A stretch of 64,000 nucleotides of DNA from Deltaproteobacteria bacterium HGW-Deltaproteobacteria-2 (GTDB lineage: Bacteria; Desulfobacterota; Syntrophia; Syntrophales; Smithellaceae): assembly GCA_002840505.1 (NCBI GenBank), contig PHBC01000001.1, forward strand, positions 703,738-767,737, given 5' to 3'. Positions 28,827-34,549 of this stretch are shown here, piece by piece. The notes under the pieces were generated by a model, which was not told the origin of the DNA, did no database searches, and was given only the letters and a program-made list of their open reading frames with translations. Both the position numbers and the translations under genes were made by a program. Every line of letters begins with the position of its first letter. Positions within the stretch are counted from its first letter, which is position 1.

Positions 28827-30413
28827 TTGAGTAAGCAACTGCAAAAAGAAATCGACCGCCGCCGCACATTCGGCATCATCAGCCATCCTGACGCGGGCAA
28901 AACCACGCTCACGGAAAAGCTTTTGCTTTTTGGCGGAGCCATTCAAATGGCCGGAGCGGTCAAAGCACGCAAAGCTTCCAAGCACGCTTTGAGCGACTGG
29001 ATGGCTATTGAGAAAGACCGCGGCATTTCCGTGACTTCGTCGGTCATGAAATTCGAATACGCGGACTGCGAAATAAATCTTCTGGACACGCCAGGCCATC
29101 AGGATTTTTCGGAAGACACTTACCGCGTGCTGACAGCAGTGGATAGCGCGCTCATGGTGATTGACGGCGCCAAAGGCGTGGAAACGCAAACCCAGAAACT
29201 TATGGAAGTCTGCCGCTTGCGTAACACTCCGATTATAACTTTTATCAACAAACTTGATCGCGATTGTCTGCCGCCACTGGACATTCTGGCGGATATCGAA
29301 GACAAACTGCAGATAGAATGCTCGCCGCTGTCCTGGCCTATAGGAATGGGCAAGCGTTTCAAAGGCGTTTACAATATGTACGATAAAAAACTGCATCTGT
29401 TCACGCCGGGGAAATCCAAACGTTCGGAAGGCGGAGTTGTCATCAATGATTTATCCGATCCGCTGCTTGATGAATTACTGGAGAGCCAGGCCTATGAACT
29501 GCGCGAAGAAGTCGCTCTTTTGGAAGGAGCGGCCAATCCATTTGATTTAAAAGAATATTTAAAAGCAGGCCAGACACCTGTTTTCTTCGGCAGTGCCATC
29601 AATAACTTCGGTGTCAAGGAATTGCTGGACGCCTTCGTGGAAATCGCTCCGCCGCCGGTCGCCCGTCCGACAACAACAAGAGAAGTATCTCCTGACGAAG
29701 ATGACTTCTCCGGTTTCGTTTTTAAAATTCAGGCCAATATGGATCCGGCGCATCGCGACCGTATAGCCTTCATGCGAATTTGTTCGGGACAATTCCAGCG
29801 CGGCATGAAAGTCATTCATCACCGTATCGGCAAGGAAGTATCTCTCGCCAACGCCACAATTTTTATGGCGCAGGACCGCACCAATGTCGAAGAGGCATAT
29901 CCCGGCGATATTATCGGCATCCACAATCACGGTACGATTAAAATCGGCGACACCTTCACACAGAAAGAACCGCTCAAGTTCACCGGCATTCCGCATTTCG
30001 CGCCGGAGCATTTCTGCCGTGTTCGGCTGAAAGACCCTCTGCGCATGAAGCATCTGCAGAAAGGATTGATTCAACTCTCCGAAGAAGGCGCCATTCAGGT
30101 TTTCAAACCTCTGTGGGGATCGGACAATATTCTGGGCGCGGTAGGCGCTCTGCAATTTGACGTGACGATGTCACGCCTTCAGGATGAATACAGCGTTTAT
30201 GCTGATTATGAAAAAACTGATTACGCCGCCGCCCGCTGGGTTACCTGCGACGACGCCAAAATAATGGAAGATTTTCAGAAGAAAAATCAAACCAACCTCG
30301 CGCTCGATACTGAAGGAAATCTTGTCTATCTGGCGCTAAGCGAATGGCGCCTTTCGCACACCATGGAAGAGTGGCCGAAAGTTAAATTCCTCAAGACGAT
30401 GGAAAAGAACTGA
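28827..30413 (+). CDS. prfC: peptide chain release factor 3
   Basis: [29 protein letters not shown] and [14 protein letters not shown] motifs, 528 aa, TTG start. Confidence 0.9.
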
Positions 30414-30443
30414 TCTCTGTTTTATTTCGAATCAAAATCAATA

Positions 30444-30471
30444 TTGAAATTATTATTCTAATCTGTATAAT
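30444..30471 (+). promoter_or_regulatory. sigma70-type promoter for the repeat-lipoprotein gene
   Basis: TTGAAA (30444-30449), 16-nt spacer, TATAAT (30466-30471). It ends 86 nt upstream of the ATG. Confidence 0.45.
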
Positions 30472-30557
30472 GCATTCCATTCTTTAAGCTATAAAGAATA
30501 ATTACCACCTTGTAACAAATCCATTAAGTAGCAGTAAAAATATTTGGGAGGCTGAAC

Positions 30558-31955
30558 ATGAAAGTCAGAGGAATAGTTGCATCATTACTTATTAGTCTGA
30601 TATTTGTCTTGATTTCCCTTGGAGGCTGCAGCGGAGGAGGAGACGAAGGCGCATCTGGTACTTCATCATCAAAAAAATGGACGCATCCGGCAAGCTTATC
30701 CGATAACATCAGCCCTGACGCACAGAATGCTGGATATCCTAGCGTAGCGATGGACAATAATGGTAATGCGATTATTGTCTGGCAGCAATCTGACGGTACC
30801 GGTTATGGCCTCAATACTCAGATATTCAAAAGTGAATATAGGAATGGCACATGGGCTAATCCTTCGAACCTTTCCGACAACATCAGCCCTGATGGCTCGC
30901 AGGTTCTTGCCCCAGAAGTGGCCATGGATAATAATGGAAATGCGATAATCGTTTGGATGCAGTATGATGGCGCCAATTATCAGGTTTTCAAAAGTGAATA
31001 CAGAAATGGCTCTTGGACTCATCCGGCAAATCTAGCTGATAACATCAGTCCCGATGGACAGGATGCTGAATTCCCCCATATAGCAATGGATAACAACGGC
31101 AATGCCATTATCGTCTGGGACCAGAATGGTGGCACATTTAAGAGCGAGTACAGAAATGGCTCTTGGATTCATCCGGCAAACTTATCTGACCATATAAACC
31201 CTGCTGGTGGTGGAGCTTATAATACTGAAGTGGCAATGGATAATGACGGCAATGCTATTATTGTTTGGGAAGAATCTGACGGTTTTGATTCTCAAATATT
31301 CAAAAGCGAATACAGAAACGGTTCTTGGATTCACCCGTCTAGTTTAACCGATAATATAAGCCCCGACGGCAGTGATGCTAGAGTTTCTCATGTAGCAATG
31401 GATAATGACGGCAATGCGATAATCGTGTGGATGCAATATGACGGCCCCAATTATCAAATTTTTAAAAGTGAATATAGAAATGGCATTTGGACACACCCCT
31501 CTAGTTTAACTAACAATATAAGCCTCGACGGGACTGATGCTGAATACCCCAACCTAGCAATGGATGACAACGGCAACGCTATTATTGTATGGAATCAATC
31601 TGATGGTACCAATAGTCAGACATTCAAAAGCGAATATAGAAATGGTAGCTGGACTCACCCGTCAAGTTTAACCGACAATATAAGCCCCGATGGATATGAT
31701 GTCTACCTATCGCCACATGTTTCTATGGATAACAACGGCAATGCTATTATCGTCTGGGATCAAAATGGCGGCACATTTAAAAGCGAGTACAGAAATGGTT
31801 CTTGGACTCATCCGGCAAATTTATCTGACCATATAAATCCTGGTGGTGGAGCTAACAATACAGAAGTGGCGATGGATAATAATGGTAACGCTATTATTGT
31901 GTGGTCTCAAGATGATGGCACCAATTATCAAATATTCAAAAGCGAATACCGCTGA
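30558..31955 (+). CDS. lipoprotein made of 8 tandem ~50-54-aa repeats (beta-propeller-like), family not recognised
   Basis: Lipobox LGGC, then a Gly/Ser linker. Eight repeats fill aa 41-465 exactly, with consensus W.HP..LSDNISPDG....P.VAMDNNGNAIIVW.Q.DG...QIFKSEYRNG. Confidence 0.8.
   Translation: MKVRGIVASLLISLIFVLISLGGCSGGGDEGASGTSSSKKWTHPASLSDNISPDAQNAGYPSVAMDNNGNAIIVWQQSDGTGYGLNTQIFKSEYRNGTWANPSNLSDNISPDGSQVLAPEVAMDNNGNAIIVWMQYDGANYQVFKSEYRNGSWTHPANLADNISPDGQDAEFPHIAMDNNGNAIIVWDQNGGTFKSEYRNGSWIHPANLSDHINPAGGGAYNTEVAMDNDGNAIIVWEESDGFDSQIFKSEYRNGSWIHPSSLTDNISPDGSDARVSHVAMDNDGNAIIVWMQYDGPNYQIFKSEYRNGIWTHPSSLTNNISLDGTDAEYPNLAMDDNGNAIIVWNQSDGTNSQTFKSEYRNGSWTHPSSLTDNISPDGYDVYLSPHVSMDNNGNAIIVWDQNGGTFKSEYRNGSWTHPANLSDHINPGGGANNTEVAMDNNGNAIIVWSQDDGTNYQIFKSEYR
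30678..31952 (+). repeat. 8 x ~150-174 bp in-frame tandem coding repeats with an internal 639-bp segmental duplication
   Basis: The repeat 3-4 block (from 31089) and the repeat 7-8 block (from 31728) are near-identical at DNA level. Both contain the shortened WDQNGGTFKSEY junction and the HINP.GGG variant. Confidence 0.8.
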
Positions 31956-31977
31956 TTAGTATTAAAGTTTTCATCCG

Positions 31978-32012
31978 GGCAGGAGATGAAAATATCCTGC
32001 CTTTAATAAAAA
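31978..32012 (+). terminator. candidate intrinsic terminator after the first repeat-lipoprotein gene
   Basis: GGCAGGA (31978-31984), 10-nt loop, TCCTGCC (31995-32001), then TTTAATAAAAAA. The U-tract is weak. Confidence 0.4.
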
Positions 32013-32048
32013 AGTTTATGCTCCAAGAATAAATTGGGGGGGCTGACC

Positions 32049-33671
32049 ATGAAAGCCAGAGGAATTATTTTATCATTAATTAGTATTCTGATATGCGCGT
32101 TGATGTTTCTTAGCGGATGCAGTGGTGGTGGAAGTGATTCGCCATCATCGACAAAAGCGATTACCGAATATTCTCTAAACGATATTGCCGGAACGATCAA
32201 TGAAACAGAGAAAACAATAGCAGTTACCGTGCCTGTTTCAACAGATCTATCGTCTTTAGTGGCGACATTTACCACAACCGGTACCAGCGTCAAAGTGGGT
32301 TCAGTCGATCAGAAAAGCGGAACGACGGCAAATAACTTTACCAATCAGGTAGTTTATACAGTAATAGCGGCAGATACTTCGACACAGGATTATATAGTAA
32401 CGGTAACCGTGGCACTATCATCGGAAAAAGCCATTACGGCATTTTCTCTGAATGGATCTGTCGGAGCGATCGATGAAACGAACAAGACTATAGCTGTAAC
32501 CATTCCTAGCGGCACATATCTAATGGATTTGGTGGCGACCTTTACAACGACCGGCGTCAGTGTCAAAGTTGGTTCAACCATTCAGGTAAGCGGGACAACG
32601 GCACATAACTTTACGTCGCCCGTGATATATAAGGTGACTGCGGCGGATGGAACAACCGTTACCTATACTGTTACAGTAACCCCTTGGTATCATCCGTCAA
32701 GTCTCTCCGATAACATCAGCCCCGATGGGCAGGATGCTTATTTCCCGCAAGTAGCGATGGACAACAAAGGCAATGCCGTCATTGTCTGGCAACAGTCCGA
32801 CGGATCCTATGATCAGATATTCAAAAGTGAGTATAGAAACGGCGTTTGGACTCACCCGTCAAGTCTCTCTGATAACATAAGTCCTGATGGACAGCATTGC
32901 CACTTGCCCCAGGTCACAATGGACAATAATGGCAATGCTTTAATCGTCTGGTATCAATCCGACGGCACTAATTTTCAGATATTCAAAAGCGAGTATAGGA
33001 AAGGCGTCTGGACTCATCCGACAAGCCTTTCCGACAGTATCAGCCTTGACGGTCAGACGGCCTACAATCCTCAAGTGGCGATGGATAACAACGGCAATGC
33101 TATTATTGTATGGCAACAGTCTGATGCCTCCATGTATCATGTTTATCATATATTCAAAAGCGAATACAGAAGCGCCATATGGAAGCATCCGACAAGTTTA
33201 TCCGACAATATAAGCCCCGACGGGCAGAGGGCTTGGAACCCTCAAGTGGCAATCGACAACAACGGCAATGCCATAATCGTCTGGTATCAATATGACGGTT
33301 CAACCGGCGCGTTTGAGGTATTTAAAAGCGAATACAGAAGCGGCGCATGGAAGCATCCGGCAAGCATTGCCGACCATATCAGCCCCGACGCAGTTAATTC
33401 ATTGAATGTCGTTCCACAGGTAGCGATGGACAATAACGGCAATACCATTATTGTATGGGGTCAAACTAACGGCGCCACGGAACAGGTATTTAAAAGCGAA
33501 TACAGAAGCGGCGTATGGAAGCATCCAGTAAACTTATCCGACAACATCAGTCCTGACGGAAAACCTGCATGGAATCCTCAAGCCGCAACAAACAATAACG
33601 GCAACGCTGTTGTTGTATGGTGGCAGTATGACGGTACCAATCATCAAATATTCAAAAGCGAATACCGCTGA
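32049..33671 (+). CDS. lipoprotein: 2 Ig-like modules + 6 copies of the same ~55-aa repeat (paralogue of 30558-31955)
   Basis: Start set at the ATG at 32049. Its upstream TTGGGGGGGCTGACC-ATGAAAGCCAGAGGAAT aligns with TTGGGAGGCTGAAC-ATGAAAGTCAGAGGAAT of the first gene. Lipobox LSGC. Both genes end in IFKSEYR*, followed by the identical TGATTAGTATTA. Confidence 0.8.
   Translation: MKARGIILSLISILICALMFLSGCSGGGSDSPSSTKAITEYSLNDIAGTINETEKTIAVTVPVSTDLSSLVATFTTTGTSVKVGSVDQKSGTTANNFTNQVVYTVIAADTSTQDYIVTVTVALSSEKAITAFSLNGSVGAIDETNKTIAVTIPSGTYLMDLVATFTTTGVSVKVGSTIQVSGTTAHNFTSPVIYKVTAADGTTVTYTVTVTPWYHPSSLSDNISPDGQDAYFPQVAMDNKGNAVIVWQQSDGSYDQIFKSEYRNGVWTHPSSLSDNISPDGQHCHLPQVTMDNNGNALIVWYQSDGTNFQIFKSEYRKGVWTHPTSLSDSISLDGQTAYNPQVAMDNNGNAIIVWQQSDASMYHVYHIFKSEYRSAIWKHPTSLSDNISPDGQRAWNPQVAIDNNGNAIIVWYQYDGSTGAFEVFKSEYRSGAWKHPASIADHISPDAVNSLNVVPQVAMDNNGNTIIVWGQTNGATEQVFKSEYRSGVWKHPVNLSDNISPDGKPAWNPQAATNNNGNAVVVWWQYDGTNHQIFKSEYR
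32685..33668 (+). repeat. 6 x ~165 bp in-frame tandem coding repeats
   Basis: The repeats run from W218 (track numbering) to the C-terminus, with the same consensus as in 30678-31952. Confidence 0.8.
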
Positions 33672-33683
33672 TTAGTATTATTG

Positions 33684-33866: not shown

Positions 33867-34208
33867 ATGAGTAACGGCGGACCCAAAATAGCGGAGATTA
33901 AAATTGATCCCAACAACCTCTACAAGGAAGAAGCATTTACCGATCTGACTTTCGCCACAATCAGACGACTTACGCCCGTAAAGATTGACGGCTCGCCGGA
34001 CGAAAGCCGAGAACCTATTTTTACCGGCATGACCCAGCTTATGTCACCCAACGGTCCAATTCCTGTTCAATGCCTTATTGAAGGCGCAAAGACTCTTAGC
34101 GAAGCGGTGGATAAACTACCGGCAGCCATTGATAAAACTGTTCAGGCGATGATTGCCGAGGCTAGGGAAATGGAACGGCAAGAAGCATCGAAAATTATTG
34201 TTCCCTAA
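33867..34208 (+). CDS. hypothetical cytoplasmic protein (113 aa)
   Basis: Clean ORF with an AAGGAG SD 7 nt upstream. No family recognised. Confidence 0.6.
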   Translation: MSNGGPKIAEIKIDPNNLYKEEAFTDLTFATIRRLTPVKIDGSPDESREPIFTGMTQLMSPNGPIPVQCLIEGAKTLSEAVDKLPAAIDKTVQAMIAEAREMERQEASKIIVP

Positions 34209-34366: not shown

Positions 34367-34549
34367 TTATTTTAGTCTTTTATCCATTCCTACAAATCCG
34401 CAATCCGGTTGGTAGCAGGTCACGTTCAGAAATTCGCATTTTTGCTTACAGGAAGGGCATATTTCCGGCGGCTGAATTTCTACAACTGTATTGCCGCAAT
34501 TACTGCATTTCCAGGTATTTTCGGGAACGGGTGTTTTTTTGTCAGTCAT
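34367..34549 (-). CDS. rubredoxin-like zinc-ribbon protein (60 aa)
   Basis: Two CxxC knuckles (CSNCGN and CPSCKQ) 16 residues apart, plus further Cys residues. Confidence 0.55.
   Translation of the reverse strand: MTDKKTPVPENTWKCSNCGNTVVEIQPPEICPSCKQKCEFLNVTCYQPDCGFVGMDKRLK

Follow-up and report, generated by a model that had tools for sequence, protein, structure and literature searches.

Tandem lipoproteins with predicted pseudo-symmetric β-propeller heads in a Smithellaceae genome, probable multivalent binding modules from a large uncharacterised family

BamB, a lipoprotein of the β-barrel assembly machinery (BAM) complex with an 8-bladed propeller, is single-copy and slowly evolving and has PQQ-like blades. 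The symmetric lectins PLL and PLL4 of Photorhabdus, CV39L of Chromobacterium and AAL of Aleuria are soluble proteins, not lipoproteins, with 6–7 highly repetitive blades and one equivalent site per blade or blade interface, and NHL propellers have 6 blades. Highly symmetric blades in a propeller are commonly taken as a sign of recent amplification. Among the designed symmetric propellers (Pizza6, Tako8), 8-bladed designs reportedly prove such rings stable. In Asp-box propellers the motif is located in the hairpin between strands 3 and 4 (PMC2716378, PMC9218822), and in propellers of this type structural conservation lies at the bottom face, the top face alone being functional (PMC2716378). Here we analysed two adjacent genes, hereafter gene 1 and gene 2, of the metagenome-assembled genome (MAG) HGW-Deltaproteobacteria-2, which lie in a 64,000-nt stretch of contig PHBC01000001.1 (the window, to which all positions refer) and encode proteins annotated as hypothetical in the public record (PKN39251.1 and PKN39252.1). 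The results suggest that they are tandem envelope lipoproteins whose pseudo-symmetric propeller heads probably act as multivalent binding modules and not as enzymes.

Gene 1 (30558–31955, + strand, taken from the list of open reading frames (ORFs); CVU62_03395) encodes a protein of 465 amino acids (aa) with an exact public match, P0001. It consists of a leader of 38–40 aa (MKVRGIVASLLISLIFVLISLGGC, Cys24, then SGGGDEGASGTSSS) and exactly 8 repeats of 50–57 aa, with FKSEYR at every repeat end. The signal peptide with its lipobox (..LISLGGC, Cys24; 30558–30629, +) is followed by a Gly/Ser-rich tether (SGGGDEGASGTSSS; 30630–30671, +) and by the repeat array (30672–31952, +), whose units start at 30672, 30843, 31005, 31155, 31317, 31479, 31641 and 31794. 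The lipobox, L-G-G-C, fits the pattern [LVI][ASTVIG][GAS]-C, with Cys24 behind a hydrophobic helix.

Gene 2 (32049–33671, +; CVU62_03400) encodes 540 aa in the order leader (Cys24, then SGGGSDSPSS, a short Ser-rich linker), two modules of ~88 aa and 6 repeats of 53–57 aa. The mechanically called ORF begins at TTG 32034, but homology to gene 1 and the public gene calls favour ATG 32049. Its signal peptide (32049–32120, +) ends in a canonical lipobox (..MFLSGC, Cys24), and this L-S-G-C fits the same pattern. The two modules (32154–32423 and 32424–32678, +) are immunoglobulin (Ig)-like and of the DUF5018 type, 62% identical to each other, and the second aligns with the single module of homologues. 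DUF5018 (PF16410) was matched at 51.2 bits against a cutoff of 38.2 in two stretches, which cover only profile positions ~121–212 of 352, that is, the Ig-like part. The six repeats (32679–33668, +; starts 32679, 32838, 33000, 33171, 33339 and 33507) are in the same phase as those of gene 1, the array opening with W-Y-H-P (W-T-H-P in gene 1) and closing with IFKSEYR. When the repeat consensus was searched against the 64-kb window by tblastn, exactly 14 significant copies were obtained (E 1e-20 to 1e-29), all in genes 1 and 2, and nothing further appeared below E = 2. An earlier note, made from the letters of this DNA alone, had described both genes as lipoproteins built entirely from such a repeat, in 8 and 6 copies; the lipoprotein leaders, the copy numbers and the Ig-like modules that it placed in gene 2 were all borne out, while "entirely" holds for gene 1 and, given those two modules, not for gene 2.

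To describe the repeat in structural terms, both proteins were modelled with AlphaFold2. Gene 1, run with an alignment of 31 same-architecture homologues, gave a predicted local distance difference test score (pLDDT) of 92.7 and a predicted template-modelling score (pTM) of 0.88, with a helix over residues 2–21 of the signal peptide and a pLDDT <50 at residues 23–35 of the tether. The propeller part of gene 2 reached a pLDDT >90, and its Ig-like modules were of low confidence because the alignment is thin there. DSSP assigned 4 strands per repeat in 8/8 and 6/6 units of the models, namely strand A (..P-x-V-A-M), strand B (A-I-I-V-W-x-Q-x), strand C (x-Q-I-F-K-S-E-Y-R) and a short strand D (x-W-x), and in the gene 1 model the D-to-A connection is a 15-residue loop, P-x-x-L-x-D-N-I-S-P-D-G-x-x. 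The top Foldseek matches in the PDB (probability 1.00) were β-propellers without exception, including sialidases, the GH145/BNR_4 group (5mul, 5mum, 5mvh, 5hx0 and 4irt), CylK, the lectins PLL, PLL4, CV39L and AAL, the polysaccharide lyases (PL) PL24, PL25 and PL42, and TolB. In these models each ~54-aa repeat is one predicted four-stranded blade and the fold class is that of a β-propeller, in agreement with the four strands per unit and the propeller fold that the earlier note had suggested.

In both arrays strand D (W-x-H-P) comes first and strand C (FKSEYR) last, a phase that would be expected for 1+3 velcro ring closure. Together with the pTM of 0.88 and the quantised repeat number, this phase suggests that the ring closes. 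Of the 122 proteins surveyed first, nearly all have the repeat array at their C-terminus, the clear exception being P0083 (a 116-aa tail), and among 132 members that look N-terminally complete the last repeat lies ≤1 residue from the C-terminus in 82 and ≤6 residues in 112.

Profile searches placed the repeat in catalogued families. Gene 1 matched DUF5894 (PF19246) at 37.9 bits, above the gathering cutoff of 25, in 4 stretches, gene 2 scored 14.0 bits, under that cutoff, and 15 of 31 relatives tested matched. The DUF5894 model has 57 positions, about one blade, of which positions 10–46 align to "SPDG....P.VAMDNNGNAIIVW.Q.DG...Q.FKS"; it covers part of the propeller family only and says nothing on fold, number of blades or function. 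PDIAV_lipo (NF053835), a 458-position equivalog model for a lipoprotein whose length fits a leader plus 8 blades, was matched by all 31 relatives tested (best E 1.1e-27), and gene 1 (78.6 bits) and gene 2 (51.4 bits) remained under its cutoff of 90. The motif is P-D-I-A-V there and P-Q-V-A-M in the window genes, which on these scores and sequences are a sister group of PDIAV_lipo and not members of it. DUF5894 and PDIAV_lipo are catalogued families of no known function, and the window genes are new members of a catalogued, uncharacterised family. The earlier statement that the repeat is unassigned is therefore not tenable, gene 1 passing the cutoffs of DUF5894 and also of BNR_4 (PF15892; 32.1 bits against 27.3). 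Since the matched families have no known function, the finding that the earlier note had named as counting against its reading, a repeat of known function, did not arise.

The best sequence and fold neighbours are Asp-box/BNR propellers, that is, glycoside hydrolase (GH) family 33 sialidases and BNR_4 proteins including the GH145 proteins BT3686, Dfer_1899 and BACOVA_03493. At the place of the Asp-box S-x-D-x-G-x-T-W, the C-to-D hairpin of the window blades reads S-E-Y-R-N-G-x-W, with the same Ser-to-Trp spacing and a conserved Trp that opens strand 4, but without the Asp and Gly position of the box, so that the hairpin is not an Asp-box. This comparison of hairpins fits a distant place of the family in the Asp-box/BNR supercluster (PMC2716378, PMC9218822). 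Asp-box/BNR propellers differ in having 6–7 irregular, divergent blades instead of 8 (or 6) near-identical ones, their template-modelling (TM) scores to the models are 0.3–0.5, and the window family has neither catalytic residues nor blade-specific conservation. The symmetric lectins share the highly repetitive blades, and CV39L gave the highest target-normalised TM-score (0.66), whereas their sequence identity to the window genes is 12–15%, i.e. no sequence similarity. NHL repeats, for example those of TRIM3 (7qrw), share with the window blades a motif that runs from strand A through the turn into strand B (V-A-[VM]-D-x-x-G-N-[IA]-I-V). The TRIM3 domain was the sole match of the repeat profile in the PDB and a non-significant one (E 0.38), and the gene 1 sequence itself matched nothing there at E ≤ 10; no family member with a solved structure could be detected by sequence. 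Pfam NHL and PD40 (PF07676) gave no match at E ≤ 10 for either gene; the resemblance to TolB/PD40 blades, called faint in the earlier note, is indeed faint, with TolB ranking only 32nd among the fold matches and the PD40-containing region of NCBIfam CHU_0125 matching at 39 bits against a cutoff of 620.

To assess the extent of the family, 8,000 candidates were scored, which gave more than 885 homologues of gene 1, none of them meaningfully named. A profile of the 14 window blades matched 19,471 proteins at E ≤ 1e-3 and 8,735 at E ≤ 1e-10 among 1.84 billion cluster representatives (50% identity clusters), and with 19,471 representatives the family is among the larger uncharacterised families of secreted proteins that environmental bacteria carry. 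The exact sequence of gene 2 is not listed in its own search, its 90% cluster being represented by a 250-aa fragment. Stretch counts per protein were overwhelmingly 8, or 14–17 in double-propeller proteins, with a few giants of 27–40. Using a blade hidden Markov model, 8 repeats were found in 110/122, 206/264 and 102/132 proteins (the last set N-terminally complete); ~78% of members have exactly 8 blades. Because complete relatives with 6 blades (P0252, P0263 and P0117) and with 5 blades (P0224) exist, the architecture of gene 2 is rare but not unique.

A scan of one genome per species found 177 loci, almost all in MAGs, from Desulfobacterota, Nitrospirota, Bdellovibrionota/Oligoflexia, Spirochaetota/Leptospirales, Sumerlaeota, Omnitrophota, Planctomycetota, Myxococcota, Acidobacteriota, SAR324 and Gammaproteobacteria, and Geothermobacter hydrogeniphilus HR-1 was the sole cultured carrier. 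The symmetric 8-blade architecture is present in at least 10 phyla, and several genomes (MAGs) carry 3–5 loci. A strict lipobox was found in 52 of the 132 N-terminally complete relatives. The N-terminal parts are variable: they may be missing, or consist of Ig-like modules (DUF5018, cadherin-like or others) in single or multiple copies, or of long lineage-specific domains. The stalk modules of relatives (Ig-like, cadherin-like, Rib and CARDB-type) are N-terminal, with the propeller as the distal C-terminal head.

Several subgroups depart from this pattern. A Sumerlaeota-type subfamily (P0006, P0018, P0020, P0021, P0030 and others) has no lipobox, shows a long domain (..PGLINYQGRLTD..) that is conserved at the N-terminus, and adds W-G-F or F-G-F behind the last FKSEYR. 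Double-propeller and giant homologues include P0121, P0122, P0125, P0156, P0167 (7019 aa) and P0202 (2560 aa), and the blades of a divergent subfamily read ..PQVAMDGSGNAVAVWQQSDGT..NIWANRY.. (P0156, 16 blades). The automatic names given to members by JGI (HigB toxin, YheU, CbrC, YpmB and BamB) are mutually inconsistent and look like spurious low-complexity or repeat matches.

Per-position conservation was then calculated over 2,245 blades. Conservation is 85–100% at repeat positions W4, P7, G32, W38 and 51–54 (S-E-Y-R), the range being 88–100% when Ser51 is left aside, and positions 12, 14, 15, 27, 34 and 40 are 78–85% conserved, while positions 19–23, 39, 41 and 44–46 are nearly free (entropy 3.2–3.9 bits) and rich in Tyr, Ser, Asn and Asp. 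On standard propeller topology the variable positions would map to the top face around the channel, to which the D-to-A and B-to-C loops and the strand A entry belong, and the conserved D-N-N-G-N and R-N-G hairpins would fall on the bottom face. Such a pattern of variable top and conserved bottom matches the rule for Asp-box propellers, in which the bottom is structural and the top functional (PMC2716378).

Further comparison of the blades in 206 eight-bladed members showed that the per-blade entropies equal the pooled entropies and that the Kullback-Leibler divergence of each blade from the pool is ≤0.2 bits, save at the N-terminal (linker) junction. Beyond this junction, no blade-specific conserved residue, as an asymmetric active site would need, was present across the 206 proteins. 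Given that the blades are statistically equivalent, an asymmetric catalytic site is unlikely, and 8 (or 6) equivalent sites per head are most likely. A role in ligand binding or adhesion, already suggested by the earlier note, is retained as the best functional guess. Glycan binding of the lectin type would plausibly be one form of it and has indirect support from the blade equivalence, the Tyr/Ser/Asn/Asp-rich variable loops, and the fold matches to PLL, CV39L and AAL.

In the reading that we consider best supported and more likely than not, the two proteins are organised and evolve as follows. Each protein would be lipid-anchored at its N-terminus and tethered to an envelope membrane through a flexible linker of Gly and Ser, and in gene 2 two Ig-like stalk modules would sit between the linker and the head. 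The head would be a closed pseudo-symmetric β-propeller of 8 blades in gene 1 and 6 in gene 2, each repeat forming a blade from strands A (P-x-V-A-M-D), B (A-I-I-V-W-x-Q), C (Q-I-F-K-S-E-Y-R) and D (W-x-H), with the N-terminal strand D completing the last blade and so closing the ring. The conserved MDNNGNAIIVW, FKSEYR-NG-x-W and L-x-DNISP would build the scaffold and the bottom face, and the hypervariable loops would occupy the top face, so that the 8 (or 6) equivalent sites could bind multivalently, as an adhesin or in ligand capture, plausibly of glycans. The family would change by blade-to-blade gene conversion, gene duplication and turnover, and an occasional change in blade number, with selection holding the ring at 8 blades in most members.

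The origin of the pair was examined in two syntenic close relatives, HGW-Deltaproteobacteria-13 (L013) and Syntrophaceae UBA6255 (L006), in which the frame prfC...113-aa ORF–queF–carB is kept. Neighbouring proteins there are highly identical to those of the window (BipA/TypA 91%, prfC 93–96%, queF 95% and carB 95%) or less so (metallo-β-lactamase-fold protein 74% and the 113-aa ORF 82%), and each relative has one DUF5018 plus 8-blade gene at this site, besides unrelated inserted genes. The propeller proteins of these relatives are only 54–59% identical to the window genes and to each other. At the DNA level their gene resembles parts of both window genes: the matches cover the region upstream of gene 1 and, for gene 2, the 5′ region, the 3′ end and the flank behind it; since a single gene in these outgroups matches the ends of both window genes in this way, the window pair is a lineage-specific tandem duplication of a whole gene. 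After the duplication, Ig-like modules were lost or gained and the blade number changed.

The same relationship is seen within the window. The 5′ ends of genes 1 and 2 are homologous from the ribosome-binding site on, both genes end in IFKSEYR*, and a 38-nt stretch across the stop codon of gene 1 (31927–31964, +) is identical to that across the stop codon of gene 2 (33643–33680, +), with weaker homology for ~60 nt downstream. The tandem paralogy described in the earlier note is in this way corroborated by the shared 5′ ends, C-termini and 3′ flank and by the single gene of the syntenic relatives. Four Logan short-read contigs carrying gene 1 (L082–L085) end one base past its stop codon, within the 38-nt stretch; short-read assemblies will systematically fragment this family.

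Inside gene 1, blades 3–4 and 7–8 form two blocks of ~312 nt that are 79% identical at an offset of 636–639 nt. The identity is concentrated in a core of 179 columns (88.8%, against 66.9% outside it in the same blades), which comprises the end of blade 3 and the start of blade 4 (31086–31264, +) and the end of blade 7 and the start of blade 8 (31725–31900, +) and includes the WDQNGGTFKSEY junction and the HINP.GGG variant. The earlier note had recognised the relation of these blades, their shared junction and the variant, all of which stand; its 639-bp internal duplication does not, the 179-nt core being best read as a gene-conversion tract and not as a 639-bp duplicated segment. A diversity-generating retroelement was considered and rejected, the mismatches in this sole near-identical repeat pair not being adenine-specific; no template/variable repeat pair was seen in the window, in which no scan aimed at reverse transcriptase was made.

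Across the family, positional orthology of blades was not found: same-index blades are as identical (0.468) as those at other offsets (0.465), also in closer protein pairs (0.662 vs 0.658), and a blade finds its best match at the same index in 13.3% of cases, where chance would give 12.5%. Blade identity is 0.53 within one protein and 0.47 between proteins. In P0007, P0024 and P0143 most blades carry the same B-C loop insertion with two Cys (e.g. DGTTNCGGSACxQIF), a possible disulfide-stapled loop that spread through the blades. The absent positional orthology, the likeness within proteins, the recurrent insertions and the conversion tract of gene 1 together argue for homogenisation by recombination. 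The sequences indicate that this homogenisation would proceed while selection keeps the blades at 8, which is the reverse of rapid expansion, although saturation at the variable positions could account for part of the missing positional signal.

The proposal of multivalent binding has to be weighed against other roles for the heads. Were they glycan-active enzymes resembling sialidases, GH145 or polysaccharide lyases, one active site would be expected at the top centre of the ring. The BNR_4 score of gene 1 speaks for such a role (gene 2, 27.0 bits, falls just short of the 27.3 cutoff), as do BNR_4 matches in 28 of the 31 relatives, the Neuraminidase-like domain in gene 1 (37.1 bits against 25) and in 26/31 relatives, the sialidases, GH145 proteins (5mul, 5mum and 5mvh) and PL24, PL25 and PL42 lyases among the top fold matches, and one relative named "sialidase family protein" in its NCBI record. 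These profile scores, however, are sums of weak stretches on a single short region of each profile, for BNR_4 on one blade (about 214–266 of 272; 215–266 for gene 1), where no stretch passes 0.01 alone, also in the scan of the whole set of relatives. The TM-scores are low (0.3–0.5), the blade number is 8 instead of 6 or 7, the conserved polar residues (K-S-E-Y-R and D-N-N-G-N) lie in strand C and the bottom-face hairpins, and no neighbourhood resembling a polysaccharide utilization locus or serving sugar utilisation was found at related loci. On the equivalence of the eight blades in the 206 members the enzyme hypothesis was rejected, and we regard it as very improbable. Periplasmic scaffolds of envelope assembly or integrity, comparable to the 8-bladed BamB or to TolB and Pal-associated PD40 propellers, would account for the combination of a lipoprotein with an 8-bladed propeller, for the weak matches to the BamB model TIGR03300 (17.2 bits) and to CHU_0125, for TolB among the fold matches and for the housekeeping genes on both sides. 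But those scores are far under the cutoffs (17.2 vs 285.2 and 39 vs 620), the family is multi-copy within genomes, the propellers evolve much faster (54–59% identity) than most of their neighbours (91–96%), the stalk modules vary, the neighbourhood is not conserved and the content of the site differs even among close relatives, all of which makes a scaffold role quite unlikely. A structural surface coat or decoy layer, in which abundant variable envelope proteins evade phages or predators by their diversity, seems about as doubtful. Fast evolution, multiple copies, variable loops, lipid-anchored stalks and the turnover of the site between close relatives would suit it, and the present data do not tell it from a binding role, with which it is not mutually exclusive; no defence or phage family gave a match with an individually significant stretch, on which ground a phage or defence origin (PADLOC and PHROGs) was likewise rejected.

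The heads might also be nascent propellers, in which a single blade would have been amplified recently and unequal crossing-over would still be adding copies. The blades of genes 1 and 2 have a median protein identity of about 66–69%, which puts them with the propellers that Pereira and Lupas called "highly repetitive" (PMC9218822), and the conversion tract, the tandem gene duplication and the variable blade number (complete members of 5 and 6 repeats, others of 14–17) would all fit recent growth. Yet blade DNA identity is just 63–82% and only about half of the codons match at identical residues, from which the blades are judged to be old, and because the same 8-blade architecture recurs across at least 10 phyla its symmetry appears maintained and not newly created. 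Six independently assembled contigs (JGI, ENA and Logan) were 100% identical to the window, so that no copy-number polymorphism of the repeat was present among these assemblies of this population. We consider recent amplification highly unlikely. The rapid expansion claimed in the earlier note, and the polymorphism in repeat number that it proposed to look for, find no counterpart in blades this divergent, in a number of 8 kept by ~78% of members, or in identical assemblies: the data show recombination at a constant or constrained blade number, not expansion.

Some observations weigh against the proposed multivalent binding as well. The sequence fits an outer-surface and a periplasmic location alike, and the variability of the loops may reflect relaxed constraint rather than selection for diverse binding. 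Ring closure and the top-face placement rest on standard propeller topology, not on inspected coordinates, and TM-scores to solved propellers are only 0.3–0.66, low values being expected if the blade number differs. A literature search on DUF5894, PF19246 and PDIAV lipoproteins returned nothing relevant and no ligand for any member. When 893 ORFs from 79 related loci and the window were clustered, no neighbour family occurred in more than 6 loci, the loci in question being those of the syntenic close relatives; inference of function from an operon was rejected on this lack of a conserved gene neighbourhood.

Taken alone, the window holds a modest result, two ordinary family members that are a tandem duplicate at a variable site between housekeeping genes. 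What appears to set the family apart is its size, the strict 8-fold pseudo-symmetry kept across phyla and the fast-evolving top face. It differs from BamB in being multi-copy and fast-evolving, and a closed 8-bladed head on lipid-anchored stalks would make multivalent cell-surface binding a function of the family that can be tested. Symmetry that is conserved across phyla with no positional orthology points to long-term homogenisation and makes the family a natural test case for propeller evolution. A bolder reading, which we think unlikely, is that of a surface-receptor repertoire on a rigid C8-symmetric scaffold, in which conversion among blades and among paralogues keeps the scaffold uniform, positive selection diversifies the top loops and one cell carries several multivalent binders that differ in specificity. 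If true, diversification of the variable-lymphocyte-receptor or antibody-like kind would have an analogue built on propellers, and high internal symmetry of a propeller could be an ancient, maintained state and not a sign of recent amplification.

Genes 1 and 2 lie on the same strand between prfC (28827–30413) and the 113-aa ORF, queF and carB, so that housekeeping genes flank the pair. Upstream of gene 1, a promoter-like site TTGAAA-16-TATAAT (30444–30471, +) agrees with the consensus at 11/12 positions, the best in the region, as a consensus match only; the segment 30434–30606 is conserved upstream of the single propeller gene of L013 and L006 (76–82% DNA identity). Between the two genes, a hairpin (GGGCAGGA..UCCUGCC, then UUUAAU; 31977–32002, +) was predicted by RNA folding as a possible terminator, with a minimum free energy of -15.3 kcal/mol, z = -2.87 and 0/200 shuffles folding equally well. 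The consensus terminator scan made no call at 31977–32002, and the equivalent region after gene 2 folded no better than shuffled sequence. Given the stable hairpin and the UUUAAU between them, genes 1 and 2 may be separate transcription units.

The spot just downstream of prfC is a variable insertion site (window 30414–30557 vs L013 3643–7739 and L006 789–2809). L013 carries there a weakly Peptidase_M74-like protein (372 aa) and a CARDB/FIMAH protein (681 aa), and L006 an SGNH/GDSL-like protein (376 aa) and a duplicate of the final ~230 nt of prfC (L006 2190–2421 vs window 30183–30414, 84% match). Directly downstream of gene 2, the 113-aa ORF (33867–34208, +) had no match in Pfam, PADLOC or PHROGs and has a counterpart of ~82% protein identity at the same place in L013 and L006. 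Between this ORF and queF lies a 60-aa ORF (34367–34549, -) with a rubredoxin-like domain (RUBY_RBDX, 33.8 bits), which is also a called gene in public assemblies.

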